This document shows positions 1 to 57,801 of a DNA stretch of 64,000 nucleotides, one piece after another. Position numbers and translations under genes: made by a program. Source of the stretch: Euglena gracilis. Its lineage: Eukaryota. Numbering within the stretch: position 1 is the stretch's first letter; every line of letters starts with the position of its first letter. Below the pieces are notes generated by a model. It had not been told where the DNA came from and did no database searches. It worked only from the letters and a program-made list of their open reading frames with translations. Location: contig CP154954.1 of NCBI GenBank assembly GCA_039621445.1, positions 9,054,634-9,118,633 of the forward strand. Reading direction: 5' to 3'.

Positions 1-165
1 GGGGAGCAATTCGTCTAACAACTCCTTCTGCACGTCGGGGACTTCGGGACTGCTGGCAGTGGGCTTGTTCTCGTCACAATGCATTGCAATGGGGTTGTTG
101 TCGTCACAGGCTTGAGAAGCAGGTGTCGGTGGACCAAAAGGGGAGACCTCCCCCTTTCCAGCCAT
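1..165 (-). CDS. Partial ORF running off the window start (MAGKGEVSPFGPPTPASQACDDNNPIAMHCDENKPTASSPEVPDVQKELLDELLP...), product unknown
   Basis: ATG at 165 on the minus strand, 15 nt after a degenerate SL copy. The frame is open to position 1. Its ATACATGGC start context is also found after the + strand SL. Confidence 0.4.
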   Translation of the reverse strand, partial: MAGKGEVSPFGPPTPASQACDDNNPIAMHCDENKPTASSPEVPDVQKELLDELLP

Positions 166-180
166 GTATATGCGGAAACG

Positions 181-208
181 CGAAAAAAATAGACGCGAAT
201 CAGAAAGT
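181..208 (-). other. Degenerate spliced-leader exon copy
   Basis: Minus strand reads ACTTTCTGA-ttcgc-GTCTATTTTTTTCG versus SL ACTTTCTGA-gt-GTCTATTTTTTTTCG. No GTATA intron follows. Confidence 0.7.
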
Positions 209-249: not shown

Positions 250-275
250 ACTTTCTGAGTGTCTATTTTTTTTCG
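250..275 (+). other. Euglenid spliced-leader exon (26 nt) at the 5' end of a retroelement
   Basis: ACTTTCTGAGTGTCTATTTTTTTTCG matches the Euglena SL exon as I recall it. It is followed by CAAAATACATGG rather than the SL intron donor GTATA. Confidence 0.92.
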
Positions 276-345
276 CAAAATACATGGCGGACAATTGAAA
301 GCCCCTGGTGGGGACAAACTAAGCCAAGAGTTCAACTATCATCGC

Positions 346-423
346 AAGTCCTGCTGGTGCAGGCAGAAGAAGTCCTGCTGGTGCAGGCAGAAGCTGAAGT
401 CCTGCTGGTGCAGGCAGAAGTCA
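346..423 (+). repeat. Three copies of AAGTCCTGCTGGTGCAGGCAGAAG
   Basis: Direct tandem copies read from the sequence. Confidence 0.85.
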
Positions 424-508
424 AGTACAAGTACAATACCAGAAGTCAAAGGTACAAGCTCAAGACAAGACATTCAAGAACCCAAGTCCTTGGGCTTCTC
501 AGCCCTTA

Positions 509-3500
509 TTGGTCTTGCTGCTGCAGAACTTCACCATGCTGCTGTTGGCTGTATTGGGCCTGAAAAGGCCCCCCCTGCTACAGGGCCTGAAAAGGCCCCT
601 TCAACCACTGGGCCTGAAAAGGCCCCCCCAGTTTTTGGGCCTGCAAAGGCCCCCCCAGTTTTTGGGCCTGCAAAGGCCCCCCCAGTTTTTGGGCCTGCAA
701 AGGCCCCCCCAGTTTTTGGGCCTGCAAAGGCCCCCCCCTTTGGGCCTGCAAAGGCCCCCCATCTGCCAACCATTAAGTGGAACTTTCAGCTCCAGTGTCT
801 TCTTTTCGGTGTTCTGCATTGCATCCCAAACTTCTGATCAATTGAAGTGGCAAACCCCCAGTTTTCACAGCACATGTTACACCAAAAGCTCTGACACATT
901 TTGCTGCAGTTTTGACTTGACATTGAGAAACATTTTGCCACCCCAACCCCTCAGTGACACTTTTTGCAGCAGTTTTGACTTGACATTGAAAAACATTTTG
1001 CCACCCCAACAGTGTCCTGCAAAGTCACTGGGCCTGCAAAGGCCCCCCTGTGACACCATTTCGGTCTGTTGCACCATTTTGCCCCAGTGGCCTGCAAAGG
1101 CCCTGGGCCTGCAAAGGCCCCCCTGTGACACCTTTTTGTCCTGTTGCAGCATTTTGTCCCAGTGGCCTGCAAAGGCCATGGGCCTGCAGAGGCCCCCCCC
1201 TGACACCATTTTTGCTCTCAGCCTGAAAAGCCCCCGACAAACTGGCAAACCATGTTCCTCCACATTTTGGACATTTTGGACTGCAACAGTGGCCCCCCAG
1301 CCAGACAGCACATCCACTTTTTGGTCTGCAACACTGGCCCCCCAGCCAGCCAGTTCTGCGGGATTCTACTGGCCTGCAACCTTCCCACCTCAGCAAAATA
1401 AACCGGACAACCCCCAGGTTCCGCCTCCGCTGACCAGAAGAAACCACCCAACGTTGGCCAAACAAATAAAAGTGCTGGTGCCTTACGTTTCTGCGAAAGA
1501 CAGCACACAGCCTACCCTACCAGCATCGGGAGGGGCAGGCCGAGGTCGGTCTTTACTGACCTGCGGGGACATTGAGAGTAACCCCGGGCCTCCTACAACC
1601 CCACCATCTGTTCCGGGTGAAGATATTGACATGGCGCCAGCATCACAAACCTCAATAACTCCTGCTGCACCGCCGCCCGCAGAGCACCCTTCGGTGTCGG
1701 GTGAGGACGTTGACATGGCGCCAGCTTCACAAATTTCCATCCCCCCATCCGCACCACCACCCGCAGTGCCACCATTGGAAAGGGGATCTTGGTTCCCAAA
1801 TCTGCCGGGTCCATTGTTCTTTGGCCAACAAGGCCTCCCCTCAATGTGCTCCACGGTCATCATGGAGAACCCAATTGGCACACAAGGACCAGGACCCTTC
1901 CCTCCGTCAGATGTTGGGGCCATTTGGATGCAAGCAAATCAGGCGACGCCCTTCCTGAACTTCTCCAACCTCCCTTTGGGTGCCAGCTCTTCATCCTCAG
2001 TGGCAACGACCGCAGCAGCATCGTCACTAGCCCTCGCGGGACCCCCACCAACCTCGGTGGCAACAACCGCAGTAGCATCGTCACCAGCCCCAGCCAGACC
2101 CCCACCAACCCCCATTGGCCAAAATCACATTGCCGGGGTTACGCCATTCTCTGCTCCATGCCCACCATCCCTTCATCCCACTTTTGAGGAAATTTCTTTT
2201 GATGATCGGGGCACCCTTGTATACCTGCCGCGTGGAGCCCTCCTGAATGTCAATCAAACCTACCTGCAATTGTTGAGGCATTTCAACAGGGAACCCGGCT
2301 GGGAAACCCTGCACGCCTTGTGGGCCTTCCCCAAAGCGGTGCTCTGCCCTTTGCAGCGTGGCGGGCGATCGAACTGGGCGATGGTGGGGAGAAAAATTGC
2401 AGACCGAGCTCGCCTGTATCTCATCCGTCCTGTGTTTGATTCTTGGTTGGACTCCAGTCTCCCACAAAAGCCACAAGGCAGACAGACAAGGCAAAAAACA
2501 GCACTCGCTGCCAAGGCCACCGAAGAACGGTTTCTTTCCCGCATTGAAAGCCTTGTTGGCCACGGGGCTATTTCAAAAGCCTGCCGAGAGCTCACCTCTG
2601 AGGGGGTTCAGAACAGCAATGACCCAAAAGTGATTCAAAGGCTGCGTGACCTTCACCCACCAGAGCCTCCACCGCGCATCCCGGTGTCCGACCCTTCCCA
2701 AACGATCACCTTTCCTTCGGACCCAGAAAGCACAAAAGAACGATTGCAAAATTTGCGCAAAGCCATATTCGGGTTCCCAAAGGAATCCGCACCGGGTCCT
2801 TCTGGCCTGAGACCTGACCACCTCAAGGCCATGGTTGGAGACTACCCAGGGGCTTGTGGAGATGACCTCCTCGAAGGGCTTGATACCTTCATCTGTCGGG
2901 CAATTACAAACGGTGTTCACCCCGGCATGGCCCCAATTCTTTCCTCAGCCAGGTTGACACCTCTGCGAAAACAGAACAAACAAACAGCAATGGAAGAGGA
3001 TGCTTTTGGAAACCTTGTGGAGAACACGGTGTGTGATGAAGACACTCGCCCAATCGCAGCAGGTGAAACCCTTCGCCGATTGGTTGGCAAATGCCTCATG
3101 CGTCATCCCACAGTGGTAAATGCTTTGAAAGAACTGAGTCCTCCACAATGTGGCGTTGGTGTGCCGAATGCTTGTCCACTGATCGCAATGGGAATCCAAC
3201 AAATGGTGGACACTTTGCACGCAGACAGAGACAATCACTGGGGGCTGCTTCAAGTGGATTTCAGGAATGCCTTCAACTCTTTGTCACGGGAAAAAATCCT
3301 GCAATCTATCCGTAGACGATGCCCAGAAGTGTGCCCTTGGCTGGATTCGTGCTACGCCCAACACAGCAAGCTGTATTGTGGAAACCATTGTCTGCCTTCC
3401 CAGAGGGGGGCTCAGCAAGGCGACCCATGTGGACCAGCAGCTTTCGCCTGGGGAGTGCAAGACCTTTGTGAGGGCCTCTCACCGTTGGTTGAATGGCAGG

Positions 3501-5104
3501 GATGGTACTTGGATGACGCCCATCTGCTGGGATCCCCAGCCCAACTGCACAATGCCCTTGCCTTCCTGATTCGCGAGGCAGCCGCGCTTGGGTTGGCCGT
3601 AAACCCTGCAAAATGTCGATTGTGGGGACCAGCGTTCACATCAACAGAAGGCGTCCCTTGCATTCCCCCTGGCACGCCACACGACAGCCCCTTACATCAA
3701 ATACCACTGACCGCCTTTGTTGCTGGTTCTGGTTTGAAAGTTTTGGGGGTCCCTGTCCACCACCCCCAAGATGACCGCTTCTGTGACGAAGTTTGGAATA
3801 AGCGCATTGCAGACATCCGACGTTCTTGCACAGTACTTCAGCACCTACCTCAATCGCATGTGCAATTCACCTTGCTTCGTTTTTGTTTATCTGCTTGCAA
3901 AGTGAATGACCTCTTGCGCGCCTGCAAAATCACCTCTGCAACAGCGGCATGCAAGACATTGTCGGGAATTATTCGGGAAACATTCAGTGGCATGGTCGGC
4001 TCCCCTTGCACTCCAGAAGAATGGTTGCAAGTTTCCCTGGCCATCAGATGCGGTGGACTGGGGATCTCGGATCCACTATTTCAACGTGTGCCAGCCAGAT
4101 TGTCTCAAGTGGTGGACTTCTGTCGAAGAGCTCCCTCTGTCTTGGGCCTGCCCGCTGCCTTGGACATCCTTCCCAAAGACACTGATGATTGTTTACGGGC
4201 AGCCCTCAATGAACTTGGTCAAATAGCCCCACTGCCACAATGGGCCACTGACAAAAATTTGATCCCTCAGGCACAGTCTCCACACAATTCACAACGTTGG
4301 TGGAATCAGCAGAGCATGCTTGCCCGCCAGAAAACACTTCGGGACACATTGAATGGACCTGATGCTGTACGCTTTGCAAGCCAATGCCAACCACACGCTA
4401 TGGCATGGGCCGCTTTGACACCATCTCAAGGACTCCGCACCCTGTTGCCCACGGCTGAATTCCGCTGCACAGTTCGTTGGTCCCTTGGAATGACTCTCAC
4501 ACCAATGGAATCCGATCCCAACCTCTGTCCCAAATGCTTTGGACAATCAGATTTTCTCGGACACCACCTCGTTTGCTGCAAATCAAACTTCATCACCCGG
4601 CGGCACGGGGCGGTACAAGATTTTCTGACAACCACAACACAGAAGGCAGGATTTACAGCCCGTAAAGAACAACGAGCTGATGACCGTTCCCGGCCTGGGG
4701 ATATCTTCATTCCTCGCTTGGACAGTGATGGACCCGTTGCAGTGGATGTGACAATCCGCCACACCCTTGCGCAAAGTCATCCGCTGCGAAGTGCAGTTTC
4801 ACAATGGCAAACACGTCAAGAGGCCGAAAAGCATGCCAAATATGATACAACATGCCAACGACTGGGCTGGCGGTTGACGCCATTCGTCATGCCACCCTCC
4901 TCAAGGCCCTTCTGGGGCAGCGGGAAGGGTGGCAGCGGCGGGCCGCAGAAGCAGACATTTGGCAAGGCCTGTCCTTCACACTTATCAGAGAAATCAGCAG
5001 ACAGCTCGTTTGGAGCTTGTATTCTTCCAAAGATGAGACCCTGTCTTCTGCCCACTCACCCTATTCTGTCATTCTGTCTCAAGGCCTTTGAGCACAAACT
5101 CTGA
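509..5104 (+). CDS. Non-LTR polyprotein: repetitive leader, 2A-like peptide, RT, Zn knuckle, RLE endonuclease (first in-frame ATG at 536; C-terminus shifts frame near 4890)
   Basis: RT motifs RPIAAGETLRRL, QCGVG, DFRNAFNSLSR, GAQQGDPCGP, WYLDD, LGVP and GGLG. Zn knuckle CPKC..HHLVCC. RLE motifs RHGAV, RPGDIF, VDVT and EKHAKY. The typical RLE tail (WQGLSFTLIRE) lies in the 4852-5091 frame, implying a small deletion. Confidence 0.9.
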   Translation: MVLLLQNFTMLLLAVLGLKRPPLLQGLKRPLQPLGLKRPPQFLGLQRPPQFLGLQRPPQFLGLQRPPQFLGLQRPPPLGLQRPPICQPLSGTFSSSVFFSVFCIASQTSDQLKWQTPSFHSTCYTKSSDTFCCSFDLTLRNILPPQPLSDTFCSSFDLTLKNILPPQQCPAKSLGLQRPPCDTISVCCTILPQWPAKALGLQRPPCDTFLSCCSILSQWPAKAMGLQRPPPDTIFALSLKSPRQTGKPCSSTFWTFWTATVAPQPDSTSTFWSATLAPQPASSAGFYWPATFPPQQNKPDNPQVPPPLTRRNHPTLAKQIKVLVPYVSAKDSTQPTLPASGGAGRGRSLLTCGDIESNPGPPTTPPSVPGEDIDMAPASQTSITPAAPPPAEHPSVSGEDVDMAPASQISIPPSAPPPAVPPLERGSWFPNLPGPLFFGQQGLPSMCSTVIMENPIGTQGPGPFPPSDVGAIWMQANQATPFLNFSNLPLGASSSSSVATTAAASSLALAGPPPTSVATTAVASSPAPARPPPTPIGQNHIAGVTPFSAPCPPSLHPTFEEISFDDRGTLVYLPRGALLNVNQTYLQLLRHFNREPGWETLHALWAFPKAVLCPLQRGGRSNWAMVGRKIADRARLYLIRPVFDSWLDSSLPQKPQGRQTRQKTALAAKATEERFLSRIESLVGHGAISKACRELTSEGVQNSNDPKVIQRLRDLHPPEPPPRIPVSDPSQTITFPSDPESTKERLQNLRKAIFGFPKESAPGPSGLRPDHLKAMVGDYPGACGDDLLEGLDTFICRAITNGVHPGMAPILSSARLTPLRKQNKQTAMEEDAFGNLVENTVCDEDTRPIAAGETLRRLVGKCLMRHPTVVNALKELSPPQCGVGVPNACPLIAMGIQQMVDTLHADRDNHWGLLQVDFRNAFNSLSREKILQSIRRRCPEVCPWLDSCYAQHSKLYCGNHCLPSQRGAQQGDPCGPAAFAWGVQDLCEGLSPLVEWQGWYLDDAHLLGSPAQLHNALAFLIREAAALGLAVNPAKCRLWGPAFTSTEGVPCIPPGTPHDSPLHQIPLTAFVAGSGLKVLGVPVHHPQDDRFCDEVWNKRIADIRRSCTVLQHLPQSHVQFTLLRFCLSACKVNDLLRACKITSATAACKTLSGIIRETFSGMVGSPCTPEEWLQVSLAIRCGGLGISDPLFQRVPARLSQVVDFCRRAPSVLGLPAALDILPKDTDDCLRAALNELGQIAPLPQWATDKNLIPQAQSPHNSQRWWNQQSMLARQKTLRDTLNGPDAVRFASQCQPHAMAWAALTPSQGLRTLLPTAEFRCTVRWSLGMTLTPMESDPNLCPKCFGQSDFLGHHLVCCKSNFITRRHGAVQDFLTTTTQKAGFTARKEQRADDRSRPGDIFIPRLDSDGPVAVDVTIRHTLAQSHPLRSAVSQWQTRQEAEKHAKYDTTCQRLGWRLTPFVMPPSSRPFWGSGKGGSGGPQKQTFGKACPSHLSEKSADSSFGACILPKMRPCLLPTHPILSFCLKAFEHKL
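556..1196 (+). repeat. Array of GGGCCT-GNRA-AGGCCC hairpins in 27-bp and 75-bp tandem units
   Basis: Units at 556, 583 and 610 have a GAAA loop. Units at 637, 664, 691, 718, 742, 1030, 1089, 1105 and 1163 have GCAA. The unit at 1180 has GCAG. Confidence 0.9.
1532..1591 (+). other. 2A-like (StopGo) peptide GAGRGRSLLTCGDIESNPGP
   Basis: Canonical D(V/I)ExNPGP motif, very close to T2A (EGRGSLLTCGDVEENPGP), in frame with the RT ORF. Confidence 0.85.
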
Positions 5105-7556
5105 ACCAAATAACCAACCTTGACTTGAACTCTCACCTGCCAAGTTTTTAACCCGTAGTTATCCCCTGAGCAGAGCAGAGCCACACGCCGAGCCAAAGAC
5201 AAATCCATGGATCACATACACACGCAGAGAAGCAAAACACAACAAAAGCCAAAACCCGACACAAACACGCCATTCGGTGGCATCCCCGCCCAATATATAT
5301 TGAAGGTGACCTTTGCTCATCTTCCGCTAACCACTGACCTCCACAACAAGTTCACAACTAGAGTAGGAACGGACGACAAGGGTAGGAAAAGTGAAAACCA
5401 AAGATTTTGTCATTTTACGAATGGAGCTTGAATGTGTCGAATTATCACAAAGTATTCACCAAGCATTGTCTTTATTTTTTCTCAACAATTTCTCGGATTA
5501 GCTTCAGGAGATTTCCAAATCCAAACTTTGAACACGACATTTTTGACAGTTGACACTCAGAAGAACTTCCAAAAAATAGTCGCATTAAACGTCCTTTGAC
5601 GGTTCGAGGAGCTTTTTCTTGGACAACACCGCGAAGGAGGGACTTTGTTTCCCCTCCGATCAGTGGTGAGCCAAGTGGTGGGAAATTGACAGGCGTTGCC
5701 CGTGGCGGAGCGAATAACAGATAAAGCAGGACGGGCGTGAAGGCGGGGGCGCCGAGCCCGCGCCAGCCCCGCCCTCGTGCCCAGGGCACAAGGGCGGGGC
5801 GGGCACGGGGCCTATGCGCTTTCGCTTTCGGGGGAGCGCCGCTACTTGACAGGCGTGTGGTGGCTGCCAAAAACGCTTTTGCCCCCCAGCCGTTTTTTTC
5901 ACCTCTCTTCCGACCCCATGGGGGCCCAAAAAATGGTTTTTCACGGGCGGGGAAGGTCGATTTTACGCACGATGTGCCACCCACTCGGGAAAATTTTTCG
6001 CAGATTTTCCCTCAAGATTCTCTCCGCCGGATGGAGACGTTGGCTGCGCCGGCAGGCACCGTTTTTTTTTCTCCCTCCCTTTGCTATATTTCCCTTTTTC
6101 TGACAGGTGTTTGCGCACAGTTTCTGGAACGCTTTGATTTGGGAAACCACTGGGGGTTTGTCGTGCGATTATTTTTTAGTAAGTTGTTTCGCTGTTGTTT
6201 TTTCGTCTTCCCCTTGCTGTCTTTTTCGGACATAAAACCCTGCAAAGTTCTCAAACCTAGTATGTATGTTCAAAGAAAATAACCCATGAACAAAGCCCCC
6301 CAAAAAACAATCCTGCAGTTCGGACAAAACATTTTAAAAAGCTGCGTTCACTGAGGATGAAAGGAAATGCTATCGCGATAGCCGTTCAAAAGAAACCCAA
6401 TTTGCACAAATAGCGCACACCCCAAAACACACCCAGAATGAAATGCAGAAAAATTCCAACATTTCAAACTTTTTTCCATGTCCAACTGAAAAATGTTTCA
6501 CAAACATTGTGCAGTGAAAACATGAAATTGAACTCTAATTCACACACAAGAAATTTGTTTCGAAAACACTCACACAGGAAAAATGACAGAGACACATTTG
6601 CAAAACACAACAATGCAGCAGAAAAAAAACAGGTGCTGTGTTCAATGCAGCAGTTACAAACAACGTTTACCTGCCTTGCTTCTCCTTCCCAAGTCATCAG
6701 AATTCTCCTGCTTCTCTGTTCTTAGTTTCTCTCAATTCAGCTGAGGAAAAGACATGCATCCAAACACACAATTGCACTGTTCACCCCCCGGCTTTTGACA
6801 ATTGTCAACAATAAACACACTCAATGTGTCAACTGTAATGTGACGTTAGCCACAAATGATGGCACAGAAAATACCCACAGAAAGAGGAAAACATGAACAG
6901 GCTTTGACAGAACCCATGATGCCACAGACATTTGACAGATGCAGATGCAGAGACAGATGCAACACAGACATTTGATGCAACAGCCACAGACATTTCATCA
7001 AAAAGTTTTTTGCTAACAGTGGAAAAGGTCAAAATAGCCAACTTTCACTGTAAATGATCATTTCACCAGAACAAAAACAAGAAGCAACAGGGATCATACC
7101 TTCAACTGCAAAGATGCTCTGCAAAAACAGCACAGTTCGCATTTTCTACAAAAATTCCGGATCTCAATGGTAAAACAAATTTCCATAGTAAAATAGTGCC
7201 TTTTATTGGTTGGGCCTGGATCTAGATGGGAAAAACAATCAGACAATCACAAACCTCTTGCTCTCTCTGACAATCACAAACCTCTGTGTGATTCTGCATC
7301 GCCGGCGGTCGCGGCCGCCCGTCTGACGAATGGGAACCCGATCTCCCGCTACCAGGCGAGTTACAGAGAAATTCAAATATCAGCGGGTGCAGTTTAGGAA
7401 TGCGCATCACATATCTGACGGGCGGCCGATCTGAGGTTTGGAGCCTTGCCCAAAGGCGCCGGAGCCATCAGCAGACGCTCAAGACGATTGGGAATCGGTG
7501 GACAAAGTTTCAGCCGAGTTCATCGATTCCCAACACTACCGTTCCCCAGAACTCGT

Positions 7557-7836: not shown

Positions 7837-9357
7837 TCATCCGTGGAGCATGCCGATGAGGCGGCAGCGGTGGAAGGATTGGCAGAGTGAGGCGAATCTG
7901 TCTTCGACTGATTGGTTTGGGAGTGATAGGTGGGGGGAGAGGTGCCATCGAGAGATTGGGTCGGCTGGTTGAATGGAGGAAGGGCACCATAGGAGATGGG
8001 CAGTGAGTTTGGTACGGATAATGAAGTTTAGCAAGCGGCGGAGGTCCTTACACAGGGATTGGTTTGACAGGGAGGGGGTAAAGTGGGAGAGGAGGTGCAG
8101 GGTGGAGACATTGTCACCAACAATGGTGCAAGGGTGGAGACCAGTGTTATAGGCGAAGTGGACGGCCTGTTCCAGGGCGAGTAACTCGGCACGTTGTTGG
8201 GAGATGGATGGGCAATGAATACGTTGGATGCGGCAGCCGACGGTTGGGCAGTAAAGGCCGATTTGGCAGCCGCTGGCGGAGATGGCGGCGTCGACGAAGA
8301 TCAGCGGGTTGAAGAAGGAAGGGGGGATGGCGTCGACAGCCTGCCATGGCGTAAGGCCTTGCAGGAGGAGGTGAAAGAGGGCCCGTCGGAGTTTGGGGAA
8401 AGCGTGGTCTATACGACCAAGGGTGTACTTTGTGAGGTACCACCCCCGAAGGAGCAGTGTTGTTCCGCGGTGTGGGCGGTGGTACCACAACATAAAGCCG
8501 GTGAGGCGGTCGATGACCTGGGGATGGAGGGGCATAAACGTGCAGAGAAGTGAGAGGGCGAGTGCTTTCTGCTCTGTGGCGGCGGTGTTTCCGATTGTTC
8601 GGTGGCAGAGGTTGAACACCTTTCCCAGCCATGTGATAGCCTGTGTGGGTAGGAGCGAGGATTTGGGGGAGATGAGGAGGTTGCATGATCGAAGGGTGGA
8701 GGTAATGGTATTGGTGACAAGGCTGCATAGGGTGTGCGATGGGGCGAGGATAAGAATGTCGTCATAATAGGTGAAGATGAAGAAGTGAGTGCCGTGGTGC
8801 AACGTGGGAGGGAGGGAGGAAACAGCGCGGTTAATAAGATCTTGGAGTGTGAGTTGGGCAAGTACAGGGGAAAGGTTCCAGCCAAACGGGAGGCAAGGGA
8901 AGTAGAAGGATGCGGTGCGGAAGGCGTATTTGGCAGCGGGGGGGAGTTCGAGGCTCCAGAAAAAGTTGGTTAAGTCGATGGTGGTGGCCCAGAGAGTGCC
9001 AGGGGGGAACCTGGAGATGGTTTCGGAGATATGGGACAGGGATGGGAGGTGGAAGGGGGGAGGCTCGGAAAAGGTGTTAGCCCAACGTAAGTCGGCAATG
9101 AAGCTGACTTTGCTGCTGTTTTTGGGGTGGATAAAGGAAGCAAGGTTGGAGAAGGGGTGGAAGTCCCCGGAGGGTGGTGGTAGGGGGAGGAGGAAACCGT
9201 CCCGTGCCAGGGAGTGAAGGAGGATCACGGTGAGTGGGGATGGGCGTCGTTGAAGGGAGGGTGGCGGCGGGTGTCGGAGGAGGGTGCGGATGAGGGTGGG
9301 GGGCACAACAGAATCCCAGATAGGTGGGGGGATGGCGTATGAGCCGCGTTGGCCCAA
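7837..9357 (-). CDS. Reverse transcriptase / RNase H (DIRS/VIPER type); true start may lie upstream
   Basis: RT motifs IADLRWAN, TIDLTNFFW, LPFGWNLSP, YYDDILIL and WLG. RNase H motifs FVDAA, QRAELLAL, VGDN and PADPISR. Confidence 0.92.
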   Translation of the reverse strand: MGQRGSYAIPPPIWDSVVPPTLIRTLLRHPPPPSLQRRPSPLTVILLHSLARDGFLLPLPPPSGDFHPFSNLASFIHPKNSSKVSFIADLRWANTFSEPPPFHLPSLSHISETISRFPPGTLWATTIDLTNFFWSLELPPAAKYAFRTASFYFPCLPFGWNLSPVLAQLTLQDLINRAVSSLPPTLHHGTHFFIFTYYDDILILAPSHTLCSLVTNTITSTLRSCNLLISPKSSLLPTQAITWLGKVFNLCHRTIGNTAATEQKALALSLLCTFMPLHPQVIDRLTGFMLWYHRPHRGTTLLLRGWYLTKYTLGRIDHAFPKLRRALFHLLLQGLTPWQAVDAIPPSFFNPLIFVDAAISASGCQIGLYCPTVGCRIQRIHCPSISQQRAELLALEQAVHFAYNTGLHPCTIVGDNVSTLHLLSHFTPSLSNQSLCKDLRRLLNFIIRTKLTAHLLWCPSSIQPADPISRWHLSPHLSLPNQSVEDRFASLCQSFHRCRLIGMLHG

Positions 9358-9617
9358 GCCGCGGAGCGCGAGTTCCTTGGGGGGTGGAAGGGTTGGGGTT
9401 ACTGTAGTATTTTAGTATGAGGAGGAGGAGCCAGTTGATGGAGAGGAGGGAGAAGAGGAGGGAGAGCAGGCGGCCAGTTGTCAGTTGTATGAGAGAATCC
9501 GTGCGCAGGTCGGTGAGGACGTGGAAGAGGAGGCGGAGGAGATGGTACAAGCATCGTCGGGAAACGGGGTGGGGTAAGGGGAGTTTTGAGAGTCGACCAG
9601 CGAGGCCCCACAGTGTA

Positions 9618-10727
9618 TTACGAGATGGTGGAAGGTCGCCGTCGTTTGTTGGATGTGGTTGGGGTTTGGGTAGGGAGGAAGGTGGGAGGGAAGAGGTCGC
9701 CCGGGATGATTGGGATGAAGGGTGTTGGTGCTCCGACTGTGGGGGGAGGTTGGGGAAAGAGCCATGGGACAGTAAGTTGGGGTTCGCTGTGTGCAGGTCC
9801 AATGTATTCCCGGGCTTGTCTTGGGTTCCTCCACCTGCACCAATCCATGATGGCTTCGAGGGGAACTCCGGATTGGGACATGATGCGGGCACAGGCCCGA
9901 CGGAGAGAGTGGAAGGGGAACCCAGCAGCAGCACACGTGTGCTGGAAGACCTGTTTGTAGTGGTGGTGGAGTGTGGCCGGCGGGCAGAAGGGTGAGTCTG
10001 TGGGTTCGGCGACTTCGTAGAGGAAGAGGAGCCAAGAAAGGGTGAAGGAGGTGAGGGTTCGGGTGGTGTCCGGGGAGAGTGGGGGGCGGACCTTGGCGGC
10101 GCGGAAGTGTATGGTTGGTGATGGGGAGGAGAAGAGGAGGGAAGAGCGGGAGAGTGAGGCGGCTTCACTGTAGCGCAGGCCGAGGGAAAGCGCCAAAATG
10201 GTGAGGCCGACAGTGCGGACGTCTTGCAGCGTGGACGGCCGTATTTGGGAAAAAGCCGATGGTGGGAACCACAAGCGGTCGGAGGGGACGTGGATGCGGT
10301 CGGCGGCGGAGGAGTACTTCCACCAGGCTGGTGGGAGGGTGAGGTCGAGCCAAGAAAGGGTGGAGAGGGCTTGGAGGGCGGAGAGGACACCGCGGATGTA
10401 GGAGGAGGCGTGGCCGGCCGCGGCAAGGTGCCCCAGGTAGAGCGGGACCAAGACCACGAGGTCAGTGTCCGGAGGATAGGTGTGTGAAAAGGAGAGGAGG
10501 GAATTGATACGGGAGCAGTACGTGCGTAGGGTGGAGGTGGACCAGTGCCATAGGAGGGCGTTTCCTGGCAGGGGGGTGCGGTCGGGCTGTGCGAGGTGGT
10601 CTTTGAGCTTAGTGAGGCTGAGGTGAGGGCGGAGATGGTGCAAGGAGGTATTGGTGGGGGGAGGGGGGCAGTTTGGGAGGGGGGAGGGGTATGCTGGGGG
10701 GGGGGTTGGGTTAGGGGGGGGGGACAC
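9618..10727 (-). CDS. Tyrosine recombinase
   Basis: Catalytic set present: LGLRYSEA (R), AAKVR (K), FHSLRR (HxxR), CRW (W) and REYI (Y). N-terminal STLRTY core-binding-like region. Confidence 0.92.
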   Translation of the reverse strand: MSPPPNPTPPPAYPSPLPNCPPPPTNTSLHHLRPHLSLTKLKDHLAQPDRTPLPGNALLWHWSTSTLRTYCSRINSLLSFSHTYPPDTDLVVLVPLYLGHLAAAGHASSYIRGVLSALQALSTLSWLDLTLPPAWWKYSSAADRIHVPSDRLWFPPSAFSQIRPSTLQDVRTVGLTILALSLGLRYSEAASLSRSSLLFSSPSPTIHFRAAKVRPPLSPDTTRTLTSFTLSWLLFLYEVAEPTDSPFCPPATLHHHYKQVFQHTCAAAGFPFHSLRRACARIMSQSGVPLEAIMDWCRWRNPRQAREYIGPAHSEPQLTVPWLFPQPPPTVGAPTPFIPIIPGDLFPPTFLPTQTPTTSNKRRRPSTIS

Positions 10728-10733
10728 AGCGAG

Positions 10734-11577
10734 TCATTTGTGGGTTTGAAGCTTGGGGCATTGCCAATGCCAGTGCCTGGGGCACGGGCAATTGGAGCAA
10801 TCCTTTGGGGGCGGAGAGGAGGTGGGCCAAAGCGTTCCCTCCCGGGTTTTGTAATACTCTGTTCCTTGGTGGAACGGAAAGTTGATGTGCCGTGTGGGGT
10901 TCGCCTTTCTGGGCGGAGGCTCCCATGAGGCAGGCGTCGGAGGCAGAGAAAGGGGCTGGACTGGACGGGGGCGCATGGGTTGGCTGTTGGGAGGAGGATG
11001 AGGAGGAGCGGTGCATGTGGGGTTGGTGTGGATCTGTGGTGAGTCGTGCGGCCGGTGAGGTGTAAGTGGCGCGGTAGCGAAAATAGGTGGAGATGAGGAG
11101 GCGCCAAACGGCGAGAAGGGTGTCGTCCTCGGTCATTCCCGAGAGGGAGCGCTCCAGGATGTCGCACAAGTCGGTCATCCAGGTCGGTCCGGGGTGGAGG
11201 GAGCGGAAAGCAGTGATGTTGGTTGGGGAGAGTGTGGCGGAGAGGCTTTCAAGGGTTGGGGGAGGTGGGTTTTGTGATGGTGCGGAAAGGGCGGCGACTT
11301 GCCGGCGCAGGGCCTCCAGTTCGTCCTCTTGGAAGGTCCACTGGAGCGCCTCAGGACCACGTTCAAGGGTGGCTCTTGTGAAGAGTTCGTATGCCGAGAG
11401 GTATTGGAGGGCGACATCGTGGTCCGGGGGTTGGCTGGGATCGGGGAAGAGGGAGGCGAACCAATGTTCACCCCAGGAGGCAGAACGGAGGAGAAGGTTT
11501 GTTTTGTGGCGGGCGATGTCTGTGGGGTTGACCCCTGTCATGAAAGGAGTGGCGGGCGGCATTTTGAAGGAATTCAT
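10734..11577 (-). CDS. Gag-like protein with CCHC zinc knuckle (frame change near 10980)
   Basis: Helical ORF from ATG 11577 (MNSFKMPP..QEDELEALRRQVAAL..). CSNCPCPRHWHWQC fits C-x2-C-x4-H-x4-C at about 10758-10799 in the 10734-10976 frame. Confidence 0.7.
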
Positions 11578-12505
11578 GGAAGGAGATGGGCCCGGGGTTC
11601 TGTTCAACGTCACCGCAGAGTAGGATGGGGGTGCCGTGTGGCGAAGTTTGAGGCATGTTAGGGGCGGATATGAGGGCGATGAACACGGGCCAAGGTGCCG
11701 GAGGTGCAGGGGAGCCGTCGGGGAAGAGGAAGCAGGGGGTGGTGTGGATGGTGATGAGCCTTGTGGCGGCGGTGGTGAGGTCGGTGAACCATTGAGCCTG
11801 GCTGAAAGGGAACAGAACCAGCGCGTGCGGTCGTTCGTGCAGGACTTTTTTGGTGACCAGGGGCAAGAGGTAGAAAGGTGGGTTGATCCAAAGGAAGCCC
11901 AGGTGGCTCCAGGTCCTGTTGAGGGCGGAGGAAGCTTCCGAGAAAAAGTTGGTGGTTTGTGCGTTGCTAGCTGAGGCGAAGAGGTCAAGGTCCGGTGGAG
12001 GGAGCGACCAGAAGTCCAGGATGCCCCAGAGGGGGGGGGGGCGGAAGACGAAGTGCCGGCTGGGGGGACCCGGGTTTGGTTGGATGTCTCCGCAGCGGAC
12101 GACCCAGTTCGGACCCCAGGTGACCTTCCAGAGGGTGAGGCCGTAGTTCCCAGGGGTGGCAGCCGGGGGAAAGTCATAGTGGTCGTGGCAGGGATTGGGG
12201 TCGTGGTGCTCGCCCCTTTTTTGGCATGCCGCCGGGGTGGGGGCGGGGGTCCTTCGCTCCCACCCATCCAGCATTTTTGGGAGGAGTCCGGCTAGAAGGC
12301 AGGCACAGAGGAGGTAGATCATTGATCTGGCAGACTGCAGTCCCATCACTGGCGGAGACAGGGCTTTTGCACAGGGTGGGGGGTGGGGGGGGAGGCCGCG
12401 GAGCCACTCCGACAGAAAGGTTGTTTGGGCAGGGGGGGGCCGAAGTTTCGGCAGAATACTTCGCAGGTCTTCCATTTCTTCATCACAAAGGGAAAGGGGA
12501 TCCAA
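11468..12505 (-). CDS. Dam-like N6-adenine DNA methyltransferase domain flanked by two 2A-like motifs
   Basis: DLDLFAS..NA and LWINPPF motifs, as in DIRS-type MT domains. VVRCGDIQPNPGP ends at 12065 and ILLCGDVEQNPGP ends at 11588. Confidence 0.85.
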   Translation of the reverse strand: MDPLSLCDEEMEDLRSILPKLRPPPAQTTFLSEWLRGLPPHPPPCAKALSPPVMGLQSARSMIYLLCACLLAGLLPKMLDGWERRTPAPTPAACQKRGEHHDPNPCHDHYDFPPAATPGNYGLTLWKVTWGPNWVVRCGDIQPNPGPPSRHFVFRPPPLWGILDFWSLPPPDLDLFASASNAQTTNFFSEASSALNRTWSHLGFLWINPPFYLLPLVTKKVLHERPHALVLFPFSQAQWFTDLTTAATRLITIHTTPCFLFPDGSPAPPAPWPVFIALISAPNMPQTSPHGTPILLCGDVEQNPGPISFHEFLQNAARHSFHDRGQPHRHRPPQNKPSPPFCLLG

Positions 12506-15151: not shown

Positions 15152-16164
15152 GTTACTCCTTCGCTAAACGACCCCCACCCAGAATTTTACAAGTCGGCCT
15201 TGGAAAAGAATAAAAATAAAAACAGGGTTAGGGTTAGGAGTAGGGTTAGGGTTCGGGTTGGGTCAGGGTCAGGGTGGGGTTAGGGTCAGGGTGCATCGCA
15301 CAATGACGTGATAAATTGGCCCCTACAGGGTACCAGCTGCCCCCGGGGGGGGGGGGGGCTGGGACCCCCCCCCCCAAAATCTGGCCCGTTAAAGGCAATT
15401 TTCAAAAATTTTCGGCGCGTCGCGCCGAAAAGGTATACCCAGCGCCTCCGGCGCGCCCCCCCCCCCCCCCCCCCCCCCGGGGGGGGGTTTGGCCCGGACC
15501 CCCCCACCCCCCCCCCCTCCCCCCCCGGGGGGGGGGGGGGGTAAGGTGACTTAAAAAGAAGCCTGATTATGACACTATTTAAAGGAGTAGGGTTGGGGTT
15601 AAGAGTCTCATGCAACCAGTTGAACCATTCCCACTCAGCTTCGTTATATTGGCCTCTAGCGAACCCAAAGAGCCGCCCAACCAGGGTTGACCAACATGGG
15701 TGGACCCGAGCAAGGCGCCGAAGGCAGAGCGAGGGTCCACCCATGTGTATTAACCCTGGTTGGGCGGGTCTTTGGGGGGGTCCCGCGCCACCCTGGGTGG
15801 GTGGGGGGGGACCCCCCTCCCCCCCGGGGGTCTTAAAAAGAAGCCTGGTCATAATACCACATTTTGGGGCTCAAGGGGGCTTCCTTGTCCACATGGGTGG
15901 AACGGCTATATACTGAAAAAAATAGACACTCAGACAGTGTACACAGTACACGGAGCGGGGCGGACAAGGAGCCCCACCGGGCATTCACTGAGGTGGGCGG
16001 GCGGTTTGACGGTTTCGGCACACGGCCACGTACGGGAAAAACGGGTGGCGCGGACTTTACAACCCACAACGGACACACTCTGAAAATCTTCTGCACGGAG
16101 GGTTGTTGGGGGGGAGAACCGGCTTGTCATTTTGGAGGTGGGGGTCATTTAGCGAAGGAGTGCC
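15152..16164. mobile_element. Same-family MITE in tandem, with nested inserts, TTAGGG-like repeats and an SL-gene fragment
   Basis: TIRs GTTACTCCTTCGCTAAACGACCCCCACC and GGTGGGGGTCATTTAGCGAAGGAGTGCC, with CACTTTT on both sides. Confidence 0.7.
15870..15938 (-). pseudogene. Decayed spliced-leader RNA gene (exon plus start of intron); 3' limit approximate
   Basis: Minus strand reads ACTGTCTGAGTGTCTATTTTTTTCA|GTATATAGCCGTT: an SL exon with two substitutions and one T fewer, followed by a GTATA donor. Confidence 0.8.
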
Positions 16165-51876: not shown

Positions 51877-52944
51877 TCAAAGGTTAGACAACAATCCACC
51901 CATGGCGAGGCGGGTTGGTGTCTCCTGACCCGAAAAACCATCCAAAAGGCCCCCTGGGGGGCTTGACTTTCCTCCCGCGTGACTGAAAGCACGATCAAAA
52001 CATTTGGGGGGAGGCCAGGCTGTCTCTTGCGATGCCAACCCCCATTCGCATTCTGAAACGTCGCAAAACATTCTGAGCGCCTGGCGTAGGATCGATTGTA
52101 AATTGTGATCCACACAATAATTCTTGAAAACCTCATTCATTCTGCCTCCTGGTTGCACAAAGGAAGCCACAGGCTCCCATGTACTGCTGCTTGCCGGAAA
52201 AGTCTCCCACCAAACCAAAAATTTCCATCCCCCTTGGTACTTGTGCTTCAAAATCTTGTAAACATTGTAAAAACCCAATTGTGCTTGTTCTTCTTCTGAC
52301 ATCTGAAGGGGGGGATCCCCTCCCTGGTCTGGCATGGGGGTGTCACCCTCCACTGGGTCTCCCACAACCACTTCACCGGTCAAAAGGTCTGGGTCTTCTT
52401 CCAAAAGGCTTTCTTCATGCAAAGCAACCTCCCACCTTTTGCACAAACCCAAAGAGACATCAATGACCCCTCCCAAAGATGGACTGCTTGCAATTTGCAC
52501 TGAATTGAACCTCGATTTGAGAACCCGAAAAGGTCCTTGCCAGGGGGGGGAAAGCTTGGGCCATGATTTGTTTGGCCATCTTTTGTTGTGCACCAAAACA
52601 TAGTCATCTTCTTCAATTTTTGCTGGTACCCTCCCTTTGTTGGCACTCTCAAAATCCTTTTTCCTCAATTCTTTCAATCTCTGGGAAGCTCTTTCTTGAA
52701 TTTCCATCTGGGTCAAAAGCCAAGAATGGGTTTCTGGATTTGTCACCGGTTCTGGGGGTAATTCCAACCTCCAAGCTGGTCTGCCCAAAAACATTTCATG
52801 GGGTGACAACATTGTTGTGGGGGAAATCTGCGAATTCATCAAAAATGTGCAATACGGGATCAGCTGCACCCAATTTTTGTCCTTGGAAGACAGACTCAAT
52901 GCTCGCATATTCTGCAAGAACATTTTATTGACATTTTCAACCAA
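51877..52944 (-). CDS. Integrase C-terminal half with GPF motif and chromodomain
   Basis: VENVNK supplies the DDE glutamate. SPHEMFLGR and KLSPPWQGPFRV motifs. Chromodomain FYNVYKILKHK..KFLVWWETFPASSSTWEP. Confidence 0.9.
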   Translation of the reverse strand: MVENVNKMFLQNMRALSLSSKDKNWVQLIPYCTFLMNSQISPTTMLSPHEMFLGRPAWRLELPPEPVTNPETHSWLLTQMEIQERASQRLKELRKKDFESANKGRVPAKIEEDDYVLVHNKRWPNKSWPKLSPPWQGPFRVLKSRFNSVQIASSPSLGGVIDVSLGLCKRWEVALHEESLLEEDPDLLTGEVVVGDPVEGDTPMPDQGGDPPLQMSEEEQAQLGFYNVYKILKHKYQGGWKFLVWWETFPASSSTWEPVASFVQPGGRMNEVFKNYCVDHNLQSILRQALRMFCDVSECEWGLASQETAWPPPKCFDRAFSHAGGKSSPPGGLLDGFSGQETPTRLAMGGLLSNL

Positions 52945-53966
52945 ACCGTTTGATCGGGGGTTCCGGGCAGAGAAAACGATAATTTCACGTCAAGAGCTTT
53001 CAGGGCTGTCTGGTAAAAACCACTGGGCTGTCTGAATCGCACGTCGTTGTCAGACCTCACAACAGACGGTTTTCCAAAAACAGAAATCCACCGGTCCAAA
53101 ATAAGCCTCAAAACACCTTCTCCGGTTACCGTTTTCTGTGTGGGGATGAATTGGCAAAAATGGGACAAATTGTCGACCAAAGTCAGAACCAAAAAGTCAT
53201 AGTCAAAACCATTGTAGGGGTCCATTTGCACAAAATCCGAACACAAAACTTCATTGCTCAGTGTTGGAATCGGTAAAGAACCCACCTTTCCACGGTCACT
53301 GGGGCGGTTTTGTTTTGAAAGGGTGCAAGTTTCACATGTCATCACAATGGCACTGCAAATTTCCAACATGTCTTTCTTGGAAACCTTGGACTGAAAATGG
53401 CTCAAAAAGAACAACAAAGTCCTTTCAGCACCAACATGGTTGCTTGCCTTGTGACATTCATCCAAACAAACTTTCAACAAATGAGATGGAACAACCAACT
53501 TTCCTTCACAATACATGGCCTTGGCAGATCTGAACCAAAACTCATTGTCAATGAAACAGGGTTTTGAAACCTCCACTTTTTTCCAAAAATCCTTCAGCTC
53601 TGAATTCAAATAACCTTTTTCTGACACTTGCACTCTGTGGGACAAACTGAAAATCTTCTGCAAAAACAGGTCAAGCTGCACATCCATTTTCTGAAAAGCG
53701 TTCCTTGCTTCTTCCTCAAAATGAATTTCAAATTTGTTCCCAAAATCAGCACGAGACAAAAAATCACACAATTCATTTTTGCAACATGCCACATGAACGA
53801 TATTCAGTTTGAACTGGTGCAAAAACACATACATCCTTCTCAGTCTTTTGTTGAGGGGGGGTTCACCCTTCAGAAAAGAGGTGGCTGCCTCATTGTCTGT
53901 CATCCACACAATTGGCAGATTTTGCAAAATCCTTGTTTGTGAAGCAATGGTCAGCACACCACTCAA
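52896..53966 (-). CDS. RNase H C-terminus plus integrase Zn-finger and core
   Basis: WMTDNEA and NELCDFLSR (RNase H); CHKASNHVG..CETC (HHCC); SDFVQM and RSDND (DDE aspartates). Confidence 0.88.
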   Translation of the reverse strand: MSGVLTIASQTRILQNLPIVWMTDNEAATSFLKGEPPLNKRLRRMYVFLHQFKLNIVHVACCKNELCDFLSRADFGNKFEIHFEEEARNAFQKMDVQLDLFLQKIFSLSHRVQVSEKGYLNSELKDFWKKVEVSKPCFIDNEFWFRSAKAMYCEGKLVVPSHLLKVCLDECHKASNHVGAERTLLFFLSHFQSKVSKKDMLEICSAIVMTCETCTLSKQNRPSDRGKVGSLPIPTLSNEVLCSDFVQMDPYNGFDYDFLVLTLVDNLSHFCQFIPTQKTVTGEGVLRLILDRWISVFGKPSVVRSDNDVRFRQPSGFYQTALKALDVKLSFSLPGTPDQTVWLKMSIKCSCRICEH

Positions 53967-55207
53967 AATTTCCTTTTGTATTTTTTTCTTGCCTCACTCC
54001 ATTTCCAGTTGTAGTGGCCCAAGGGCACCAACCTCATTTTACTGGGGTAGTTGTTTTTCAGGGTTCCATCCACCTTCACACCACTTGTTCGAAAATTCTC
54101 AGGAATTTGTGTTTGTTGGAGGGTTTGCCACTGAAACAATGCTGAACCACCTCCCAAATCCGAACTGTCAGTCACCAAAACAATCTCTCCTGAACTCCTG
54201 GGGGTACCCAAAACATCAAGAGAAGACCACTTCCTTTTCAATGCATTCAAACAACTCTCCTCCTTTTCAGTCCACCTCCATTTCACATTCTTTTTCAGAA
54301 GATCTGTGAGCGGGGCTGAGTCAAAAGTAAAACCTTTCACGTGTCTGCGGTAGAAATTCATGGCTCCCAAAATTCGCCTCAAATCCCTTTGATTCTGAAC
54401 TCGAAAACTCAGAATTGGTTCAATGTTTCTTTTGTTTGCCTGCCACATTCCCCATCCCAACGAGAAACCCAAATAGTCAATGGACTGATTCAGAAAGGAA
54501 CATTTGCTCAATTTGATTCTCACTTGGTTCTTTCTGCAAACTTCAAACCACTTTTCCAAAAGATACAAATGATCCTCCTCAGAGTTTGCACCAACCCCTG
54601 TGTCATCGAAAAAAGAAGCCAGGTGTCCATCCTTCAAAATCTCTCTCACCCTCAAATCCGTTTTGCATTGGGAGGTTAGAATTTCCATCAGCTCCTGAAA
54701 AATACCCGGTGCATTACTTAGGCCAAACATCATCCTTTTGGGACGAAAACACCTCCCAGATGGAATGCAAAATGCAGACAAATTTGCTGCTCTTTTTGTG
54801 ATTGGGATTTGCCAATACCCACTCCTCGTGTCCAGGGTACTTTTCCACCGACATTTGGCCAAACTTTTAATCAAAACCTCCATGCTTGGCAAATAACCTG
54901 CATGTGCCTTGCTTCTGGCATTCAATTTTCCATAATGGATGACCATCCTTCTGGTACTTGACCCTTTTTTGTCCACCAAAAATGTGGGGCTGCACACCTG
55001 GGGGATTTCACCAACTGGGAATTGCTCAATCAACCCTGACTTTAGCAATTCTTCACACTGAAGGTCAATTTCTTTTTCATCCTCCTGGGGCATGGGCCAA
55101 CACTTTTGCCTTAGGGGTTTACCTTGCCATTCAGGCTTCAGCTCAATGTCCATCAAAACAGGCAGGGGGGGAAGGCTCAGAAATTGTGGGCAATGGTCCA
55201 AAAACAT
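53963..55207 (-). CDS. Reverse transcriptase plus RNase H N-terminus
   Basis: SPTFLVDKK, RMVIHYGKLN, LDTRSGYWQI, MFGLSNAPGIFQ, FFDD, YLGF and LVTDSSDLGGG. Confidence 0.92.
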   Translation of the reverse strand: MFLDHCPQFLSLPPLPVLMDIELKPEWQGKPLRQKCWPMPQEDEKEIDLQCEELLKSGLIEQFPVGEIPQVCSPTFLVDKKGSSTRRMVIHYGKLNARSKAHAGYLPSMEVLIKSLAKCRWKSTLDTRSGYWQIPITKRAANLSAFCIPSGRCFRPKRMMFGLSNAPGIFQELMEILTSQCKTDLRVREILKDGHLASFFDDTGVGANSEEDHLYLLEKWFEVCRKNQVRIKLSKCSFLNQSIDYLGFSLGWGMWQANKRNIEPILSFRVQNQRDLRRILGAMNFYRRHVKGFTFDSAPLTDLLKKNVKWRWTEKEESCLNALKRKWSSLDVLGTPRSSGEIVLVTDSSDLGGGSALFQWQTLQQTQIPENFRTSGVKVDGTLKNNYPSKMRLVPLGHYNWKWSEARKKYKRKF

Positions 55208-57801
55208 CAGAAAATTTCACCAAAAGCTCATACAACCTGGGGTGGTCTCTTAATTTCTCAACTTCTTTTTCAAATTCTCCACTCAGATTCTCAGTAAACA
55301 ATTTGCTGCTTTTTTCATCAGCCTTTTTCTGGGCCTCCAAAGTCCAAATCTTTTCATGCAAAACTTGGGAAATGCTTTTGAGTTCATCCATCTTGATTGT
55401 TGCCTTGGGAGTTTTCACAGGTTTTGCAAACTGCACATCTTCCACAGGCTGGGCCAGCTGGAAAAACATCACCTCCACATCTTTTCTCACCTCTTGAAAA
55501 AGACTCAGCTCACTTTCAATGTCTTTTGTCAATTCAGCCAAAAAATTGATGTTTTCATGCTCATTCATTGATTCAAACACCACCACATTGTCCAACCATT
55601 CTTTCATCTTTTCATCTGATTCCTTGGGGGGAACATTCTCCAAAGGAAAACTTGGACTTTCAAAAACTTGCTTGTCTGCAGGTGGACTGGCAGGCTGGGG
55701 TGCCTGCTGCTGGGGGGGAACATCAGGAAGAACTGGGAAATCCACTTGAATTCCATCATCCACTGTGGGATACTTCCTGATCTCACCTCTCAGTTCATCC
55801 AAACTCCAATTCCTTGAAACTTTTCTGAGCCAACTGACAATTTTGGGGTCCAAAAGCTCAAAATCCACTTTGAATTGCACAGTGTCCACCACACTCACAA
55901 AAGTGTTCCACAGGGGGGAGGGCAGCACCTTTTTGCACCTGTCACCCACAAACAAGGGAACCCCACTTGAAATTTTCACCCTGGCCACAGTCACCCTTTC
56001 CAGCAGGGGGGACCAGTACTGGTCCACCCAGTCTGGGTGTACCAGGACCATTTTTGTTTCTTCAATGCACAACTTTGTCACCACTTTGCTTAGTTGGCTG
56101 AAGGGGGGGTTTGCCCACAGAAACTTGGAAGCACCAATGTCACACAACAACCTTTCCCATGAATACCTGTAGGCTGAATTCCCTTTTGTCATGTACAAAG
56201 ACTGGGTGTGGTTCAGGTGGTTTGCAAAAAGATCAATGCAAATCTGACCCTCAGAAATCTTCAATTCATCCAAAGCTTTTGTCTTCACTGGCTTCACCAA
56301 AGTGTAGCTTTCTGTCTTGAAAAGTCTGAAAATTCTTTTGATGGTGTGGTCCCCATCATGGCTCTGAAGTAAAAACTCCTCACCATCAATGATGATTCTG
56401 GGGGGTCTGGTCAGCAACCCACCAAAAAATTCACTTTCAGTAAAGTCAGTCCCCAAAACTGCCTCGAAGGCATTTGTTTCAACAACAACCGCTTTAAGCT
56501 TTAGAATTTTTCGTCCCAACTCCAAACTCACCTCACACACTCCTTCAGAAAAAATGTACTCCCCGTTGCCGATCTGCAGGGGTACCGCAGCACTCCGCTG
56601 AATTTTATTCTCTGGAACACATTTCTTAGAAACTGCAGTAATGGTGGCCCCTGTGTCCAAAATGGCTTGAATTTCCTTTCCATAAACCCTCACTGGCAAA
56701 AGATAAGTTTTACACACCATCTGGAGCAACTGCAAAGCATCAGCCTTTCTCTTTTTGGGGTTCTCACCCTGGGGGGTAACCTGGGTTTGCACTCCCTGGG
56801 GTTGAACCGAAGGGGTCCCTTTGCCTGCCCCCTTCTGGGCTGCTGCCTTCTTTTTCTCAAACTTTTCTTTTGACCAACATCTGTCTTCATAATGCCCTTT
56901 TTTGTGACAAAATCGACAGAAAATTGTGGCTCCAAATCGTGGGGCTTTTCTTTCACCCTTGCCTTTGCCTTTTCCTTTGCCTTTTCCTTTTTCACCAGAT
57001 TTTCCACCTTTTCCAGATTCTGGGACATTTTCACCAACTTTTTCAGATTGATCAGGGGGTCTTTCAATCAATGGTCTGAGATTTTCTTTTTTCAGCAAAT
57101 TCCTCTCCAACCAATCTTCAGAACTTTTCTCCAAAATTGTTTTTCTCAAATCTGTGAATGTCTCAGAACGATGTTTGTAAAATCTGTCTGCCCTGATGTC
57201 TGCATACATTCTGGGGTGTAATTTCCTCAGCAAAACCAAAAACTTTTCCTGTTCACTCATGGCCTGGGGGCTCAACCTGGCCATCAAATTGTCCAACTCA
57301 ATGAAAAGTTTTTTGATGTCTTGGGGTTCAGGGTTCTGGGAAAGTGTTGGCAATTTGTCAATGGCAGACCTCAAAGTCATGTCATTTTCCAATGTTGGGA
57401 ACAAATTTGCAATTCCCAACAGCACTTTTTCAAAATCATCATTCTCATCCATCACTTTTTCAACCAGTTTTTTTCACCTTGGGGGTGCAACATTCCAACA
57501 GCCAATCCTTTTTCTGGACATTTCCAAATGCAACTGCGCCAGTTAACCTCAACCATCTGCCAAAATCTTTCAAAAACTCTGGCCAATTTGTGCCATCAAA
57601 CTCTGGCAATTTCACAGGGGGTAATCTTGAACTTTGGGTTGAACTTTGGCTGGGGTTGCTGGAATTTGGTTCCACAATTTGCTTCAGAAATGTTTCAACC
57701 TGGGTGATGGGGTTCACAGGGGTAAACACAGATTGACTGCTGCTGGCTGATTTCATTTCCAATTCTTGCAACCTTCTTTCCAAATCTTCAATGGAGGACA
57801 T
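55143..57801 (-). CDS. Gag (CCHC), aspartic protease and Dam-like N6-MTase (frame change near 57460)
   Basis: PVKLPEFDG; CRFCHKKGHYEDRC; AILDTGAT. MT domain at about 55880-56315 with IDLFAN..N, LWANPPF and LVHPDW..W, in the same frame as the protease. Confidence 0.9.

Follow-up and report, generated by a model that had tools for sequence, protein, structure and literature searches.

Spliced leader copies at the 5' ends of a dispersed family of RT-RLE retrotransposons in Euglena gracilis

Results

An exact spliced leader joined to a retrotransposon

The window analysed here is a 64,000-nt stretch of contig CP154954.1 of Euglena gracilis, and its features of interest are collected in Table 1. 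On the plus strand at 250-275 it carries ACTTTCTGAGTGTCTATTTTTTTTCG, an exact 26-nt euglenid spliced leader (SL) with the same letters as the printed E. gracilis SL (PMC6242988), and element sequence follows directly 3' without GTATA. Such a perfect junction had been reported by an earlier note on this DNA and was confirmed by use of the 23-nt SL core, which was found at two sites of the window (exactly at 250, and with one mismatch at 15916-15938 of the minus strand) and gave no chance match in 100 shuffles of the window.

Table 1. Features of the window related to the spliced leader and the elements that it heads.
Positions	Strand	Feature	Basis or remark
1..180	-	5' end of neighbouring diverged RT-RLE element	runs beyond window
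181..208	-	degenerate SL heading second, head-to-head element	not mentioned in earlier note
250..275	+	exact 26-nt SL exon copy, element 5' end	sequence, shuffles, published SL
276..5361	+	non-LTR retrotransposon body ("family A")	3' ~160 nt absent
284..298	+	four-codon upstream ORF (MADN, then stop)	conserved across family A
302..313	+	short G-C hairpin	similar hairpins after SL in sister families
346..1211	+	internal tandem-repeat region	periods 24-27, 27, 63, 75
398..5104	+	stop-to-stop frame, 1568 aa
1538..1591	+	2A-like (putative ribosome-skipping) motif ending GDIESNPGP	pattern D(V/I)ExNPGP
3116..3625	+	reverse transcriptase (RT)	Pfam RVT_1, E 1.8e-11
4525..4890	+	CCHC knuckle and presumed restriction-like endonuclease (RLE) motif RPGD..D	by eye
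15914..15938	-	exon of solitary diverged SL-RNA gene, GTATA next	outside arrays; comparison site, not element part

By its domains and repeats the element appears to be an RLE-type non-LTR retrotransposon resembling the CRE clade. One homologue (E 6e-47) is named a SLACS protein by its source, and the other homologue matches are mostly unnamed. The motif at 4525..4890, read as that of an RLE, gave no match in a profile search; a Pfam search of the window revealed no APE domain, and no matches were returned by an Rfam scan of the window or by a PDB sequence search. Folding of the element 5' end gave no significant structure, and the hairpin region folded no better than its shuffles (z 0.5 and -0.2). 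Compared to an intact copy, a 43-nt deletion near 4891 puts the last ~60 codons of the 1568-aa frame out of frame, and the copy ends at 5361, ~160 nt before the family A 3' end; because of these two lesions the window copy is damaged and likely dead. RNA at its 5' end is sense-strand and starts near 250, spliced and genomic SL being indistinguishable in these reads.

The two head-to-head leaders are separated by 41 nt, and the neighbouring element (1-208 and locus L120) has its own 2A-like motif and 28-32% amino-acid identity to the family A copy of the window. The solitary SL-RNA gene, the exon of which ends T7-CA, matches the unit of the 5S-SL arrays both upstream (72% over 129 nt) and downstream (83% over 41 nt). 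By contrast, the flank of the window copy (1-249) has no match to the array unit, as the earlier note had stated in calling the two upstream flanks unlike. Elsewhere in the window, broken frames with a Pfam RVT_1 match mark another retroelement (7837-12291, minus strand), and frames of an LTR-type retrotransposon (51877-57473, minus strand) match aspartic protease, RT, RNase H, integrase and chromodomain, with a weak match to Dam methylase; a 300-nt direct repeat lies around these frames, at 50893 and 58447.

The SL occupies one junction throughout the genome

The survey was extended to 2.37 Gb of genome on 46 contigs, in which matches to a 22-nt motif of the body start identified 551 intact family A 5' ends. 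An SL or its remnant was present at the same junction in 30/30 family A loci that were picked by body sequence only, as the first in genome order. In family B, too, the SL was present at the junction of 30 loci; its end is mutated in one of them, and a short restart follows it in three. T is absent at both -4 and -3 in only 11 of the 551 family A ends, namely seven SL variants, one end that follows a duplicated SL start, one inversion and a pair of copies with CAG. The 5' flanks beyond this fixed junction are unlike each other, the variability that the earlier note had proposed to look for among family copies; they often consist of filler, partial SL repeats or fold-backs, and some are 3' ends of other elements or ends of MITEs. 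Outside the SL genes, 2007 SL copies with a run of eight T (T8) are not followed by G. The SL genes themselves form 612-bp arrays with 5S-like sequence, and 459/507 of them are T8.

The copies are dispersed and have no LTRs; many are 5'-truncated, with a fixed 3' end. Full-length SL-headed copies with frames of 1470-1580 aa are found in several subfamilies. An A-run at the start of the 3' flank, as expected of a poly(A) tail, was detected in only 2 of 80 distinct flanks. Inspection by eye found filler at both ends and a short target-site duplication in one or two copies, with no regular one seen. Among 20 SL-headed stretches chosen to represent other 5' types (L430-L449), 17 have same-strand RT-RLE matches (two of these weak and far downstream) and 15 have a 2A-like motif, often two per element.

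Several further arrangements were observed. Similar 5' ends precede RT regions of very different identity (about 90% in L433, 57% in L443), which suggests module swapping or nesting. Many copies lie directly beyond the 3' end of another such element and so form chains (L016, L019, L029, L042, L045, L188, L194 and others), and others are found within MITEs, 60-100 nt from the end and close to a motif resembling TTAGGAAT. A tandem array of ~2-kb units, each an SL joined to a family-A-like 5' end, occupies G000:C10 36149536-36200561.

New leaders joined to old leaders

A tandem-SL pattern gave 48 matches, of which 47 loci were read; 40 fit the SL pattern, 7 did not and 5 rows were duplicates. By this approach, 36 distinct double-SL junctions were identified on at least seven 5' types, and in them an SL has been joined again to a copy that was already SL-headed. 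The new SL follows the internal AG of the old one in 24 of the 36 junctions (plus one with a mutated base) and its TG in nine; none follows the third G, and two are of other kinds. At one locus (L295, G000:C41 near 22475450) three SL pieces stand in a row, which indicates that trans-splicing and reinsertion have happened at least three times. From these double junctions and the triple one, SL-headed copies are judged to be templates themselves. T-runs longer than eight are more frequent in the inner than in the outer SL (13/36 vs 4/36; Fisher p 0.025), as additional cycles of copying would produce, and the share of exact T8CG did not differ (23 outer vs 19 inner of 36, p 0.47). Tandem relics are nonetheless rare (36 distinct junctions from 48 matches, compared with over 2000 SL copies), and the vast majority of elements carry one SL.

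The exact 3' end of the SL is also found joined at other sites. It follows a downstream AAG in 8 of 77 matches and CAT in 6, 6, 7 and 4 of 77 in four 5' types, the matches not being de-duplicated. The joins after CAT remove 3, 7 or 4 bases and show no microhomology. In family F, 95 of 100 listed junctions lie at the usual place, and three of the other five follow an internal CG. The AAG, CAT and internal CG joins have the pattern of alternative acceptors.

RNA reads carry the host letter over mutated relics

A MITE whose inverted ends are 9 nt long (CAGGGTTGG) and which shows an apparent duplication of 8 bp has taken up a mutated SL together with about 1 kb of family A; it has spread this fragment and supplies most RNA reads of the family A 5' end. 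MITE-borne loci include L048, L051, L174, L180, L183, L195, L196 and others, spanning about -140 to +1300 around the SL. In all 26 genomic loci of the MITE body type, C stands at -3 and there is no internal AG, and the same is true of 10/10 loci of a narrower subtype. RNA reads of four runs from two studies (about 5% of each run; runs with a small share were left out) were aligned to one MITE-type locus, where their 5' ends cluster at the beginning of the T-run. The host T, rather than the C of the relics, was present at -3 in 116/133, 162/179, 120/139 and 5/8 reads (86-91% in three runs), figures that are unphased column counts on non-autonomous MITE-borne copies, from runs possibly of another strain and against an assembly that may miss loci. 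After subtraction of every read with a listed non-MITE marker, at least 69, 83, 54 and 1 host-T reads remain, on the assumption that reads reach the markers, across which depth is flat. The reads commonly show each of the A-type, T-type and +6C haplotypes, and thus one missing locus would not explain the host letter. On the plain reading, the SL was joined at the last base of the relic, and it is from these unphased counts that we infer a CG acceptor. Moreover, 16-18 reads per unstranded run have unlike upstream flanks, which indicates that read-through RNA exists; the stranded run is sense only.

Discussion

A proposed route of SL exchange

We consider it probable that the RNA of this dispersed RT-RLE family is trans-spliced to the host SL and copied to its cap, so that the relic SL at the head of each new copy is the next acceptor, mostly by way of its CG. 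Element RNA would arise by read-through or from upstream promoters. Its joining would be spliceosomal, the pyrimidine run and terminal CG of the relic together forming the acceptor, so that the old SL would give way to a new one of the same length. The SL-capped RNA would then be reverse-transcribed to the cap and its insertion repaired with filler. The uncommon variant junctions would stem from minor acceptors, namely CAT, the downstream AAG and the relic's internal AG and TG. Pairing of SL RNA with the relic in trans might guide the choice of site; in a fold prediction of the SL RNA the exon pairs with the intron start.

The earlier note had offered two alternatives: that the element RNA was trans-spliced and reverse-transcribed to its cap, or that the element had adopted the SL as its 5' end. 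The first is supported by the junctions, the unlike flanks and the double SLs, and both appear to hold in part, as the SL is the standing 5' end of the sources and seems to be renewed by trans-splicing in each round.

Dominant use of CG would be surprising, since CG ranks low as an acceptor under the established rules. In Trypanosoma brucei, AG is used at 94% of major trans-splice sites, pyrimidine dinucleotides being the least frequent, and non-AG acceptors are known among the minor sites, 20% of which use them (PMC2916883). Also counting against a CG acceptor are an AG 26 nt downstream of the junction that is seldom used, two relics of type A2 that read AG and the family A locus with CAG. 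The internal AG of the relic is not likely to be the main acceptor in place of CG, because relics would then pile up as they do in dinoflagellate retrogenes, and here they are rare.

Is the SL inherited?

An SL exon can act as an internal promoter element in a nematode. If the euglenid SL likewise belonged permanently to the element and were handed down with it, for example as an internal promoter or cap signal, selection would keep it unchanged, RNA would start unspliced at SL +1 and double SLs would be rare accidents. Consistent with this, most copies have a single SL, and in a few (L204, L379, L377) the SL is still mutated although the flank is new, which means that some SLs have been passed on unrenewed. 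A tree was built from 74 of 122 independent 5' ends, the other 48 having been dropped for excessive interruption or divergence in the region used for alignment, and it revealed several young bursts, all SL-headed. Unspliced inheritance would make T-run variants mark subfamilies. SL variants were found not to track body subfamily (permutation p 0.41, 0.68 and 0.09; 70 copies), in a test of low power of which the nearest-neighbour form of clustering leaned toward inheritance (p 0.09). T8 is the commonest SL form, or tied, in each larger burst, and it stays common across bursts and families despite frequent T-run slips, part of which may be assembly noise since 48/507 SL genes are not T8. Two further observations stand against inheritance: the host letter in RNA of loci with a mutated relic, and the fixed alternative junctions after CAT and AAG, which need RNA joining. 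We thus regard a purely inherited SL as unlikely and retain exchange of SL for SL as the preferred reading.

A set of 66 'CCG' SL variants was at one point taken for inherited SL mutations, an idea that was rejected as many are one captured fragment spread by a DNA transposon; these variants were left out of the tree. Variant SL genes were also rejected as their source, as none of 10 inspected out of 18 matches was an SL gene.

Few AG-bearing copies and none source-like

An AG acceptor at this position in master copies had been proposed in the earlier note as the confirming observation, and here the expectation failed: AG was found at the junction in 3/551 family A copies, none of them source-like. 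One follows a duplicated SL start, and the other two are a segmental duplicate pair, thus a single locus, with CAG exactly at the junction. In family B, AG occurs in 1/172 copies, within junction filler. Type A2 has two independent AG copies (L216, L217), in which the CG of the SL relic reads AG and so resembles a canonical acceptor.

These counts bear on the possibility that all of the RNA comes from a small number of master loci that have an ordinary outron with AG, SL-headed copies being dead ends like processed pseudogenes. The CAG locus would suit such a master, as E. gracilis outrons end in CAG (PMC11170887), and other masters may be absent from the assembly. However, the pair is broken after about 3.2 kb and its alignable copy is a tip in one small sub-clade of the tree, other young bursts are without an AG copy, the A2 and family B cases are mutated SL ends and filler, and the double and triple SLs make SL-headed copies templates. 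After this search in three 5' types an AG master was rejected as the main route, and we hold it to be a rather improbable source of the family.

Template jumping and SL-gene targeting

Enzymes of the R2 type are capable of end-to-end template jumping, and the filler, partial SL repeats and fold-backs at the junctions are what a reverse transcriptase might leave if it jumped from the 5' end of unspliced element RNA to a free SL exon or SL-capped RNA. Such jumps would require near-complete efficiency and leave unexplained both why the AG of the relic is favoured over its remaining G's and why the host SL letter is seen in cellular RNA; this account is very unlikely. Site-specific insertion into SL-RNA genes of the SLACS/CRE1/CZAR type, with the SL as target or derived from an SL-gene master, is suggested by the related architecture and by SL pieces within 200 nt of 26/80 3' ends (a set biased by locus choice) or near the 3' end in 4/29 by eye (loci picked by 3' region), but it is largely refuted and most improbable, as 0/184 family 5' flanks resemble SL-gene upstream sequence, 0/80 distinct 3' flanks contain exon plus GTATA or SL-gene sequence, no SL-gene upstream sequence plus exon is followed by non-G in the genome (T8 form searched), and the SL genes lie in their separate arrays with no family copy among them. 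The SL pieces near 3' ends could have been inserted afterwards, and homing to SL sequence need not be assumed. The same 80 flanks uphold for the family the claim of the earlier note that no SL remainder is seen at the 3' end; for the window copy this absence says little because that copy is cut at 5361.

Relation to known elements

Non-LTR elements need an exact 5' end in each round and are known to obtain it from an internal promoter, by self-cleavage from a host transcript or by insertion behind a host promoter; SLACS, for example, is transcribed from the SL promoter. Elements of the CRE clade (SLACS, CZAR, CRE1, CRE2) resemble the Euglena family in their single RT and RLE frame, internal repeats, euglenozoan host and link to the SL, and they differ in that they insert at a single site of SL-RNA genes, duplicate the target and end in poly(A) (PMC12278014). 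By contrast, the Euglena family is dispersed outside of SL genes, without poly(A) and, in the copies inspected by eye, without a regular duplication, and its SL appears to be RNA-derived. Nematode NeSL elements are also RLE non-LTR elements tied to SL exons, and differ by SL-gene-specific targeting and a protease domain (PMC4640811), neither of which was seen in the Euglena family. L1Tc/ingi and other 2A-bearing non-LTR elements share the 2A-like motif before the enzyme region (PMC3708506); these elements are APE-type, and L1Tc has an internal promoter and unspliced RNA (PMC1874656).

A parallel in RNA processing is provided by the DinoSL-DinoRL retrogenes of dinoflagellates, in which SL-capped RNA is reinserted, expressed and re-spliced inside the relic to give tandem leaders; these are passive host retrogenes, and a relic is left in each round (PMC12014239). 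Joining inside an older genomic SL was likewise found here, in the 36 junctions, whereas a relic left in each round was not. The Euglena elements are autonomous retrotransposons with rare tandem relics, and their main route appears to be replacement of the whole SL at a non-AG site. No report of SL-headed euglenid retrotransposons or of SL-for-SL exchange was found in searches of the openly accessible literature.

If SL-for-SL exchange occurs, it would be another way to rebuild an exact 5' end, and a path from SL-gene targeting to free dispersal. Any full-length copy under read-through would make exact, capped and translatable RNA. Slightly on the likely side, in our estimate, is the broader proposition that a whole radiation of euglenid retrotransposons uses a DNA copy of the SL as a self-regenerating acceptor, with no promoter, ribozyme or master of its own; the trans-spliceosome of this organism would then routinely accept a non-AG site. 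Such exchange would also make 3' splice-site rules readily testable in Euglena. A published survey of E. gracilis outrons exchanged the SL for AG before mapping and for this reason is blind to other acceptors (PMC11170887). Gene annotation and SL-based calling of mRNAs in the Euglena genome likewise have to reckon with the more than 2000 SL copies in its DNA. Two SL-headed sequences (L134/L436 and L142/L437) are without a clear nearby RT and could represent either non-autonomous elements or retrocopies of host RNAs.
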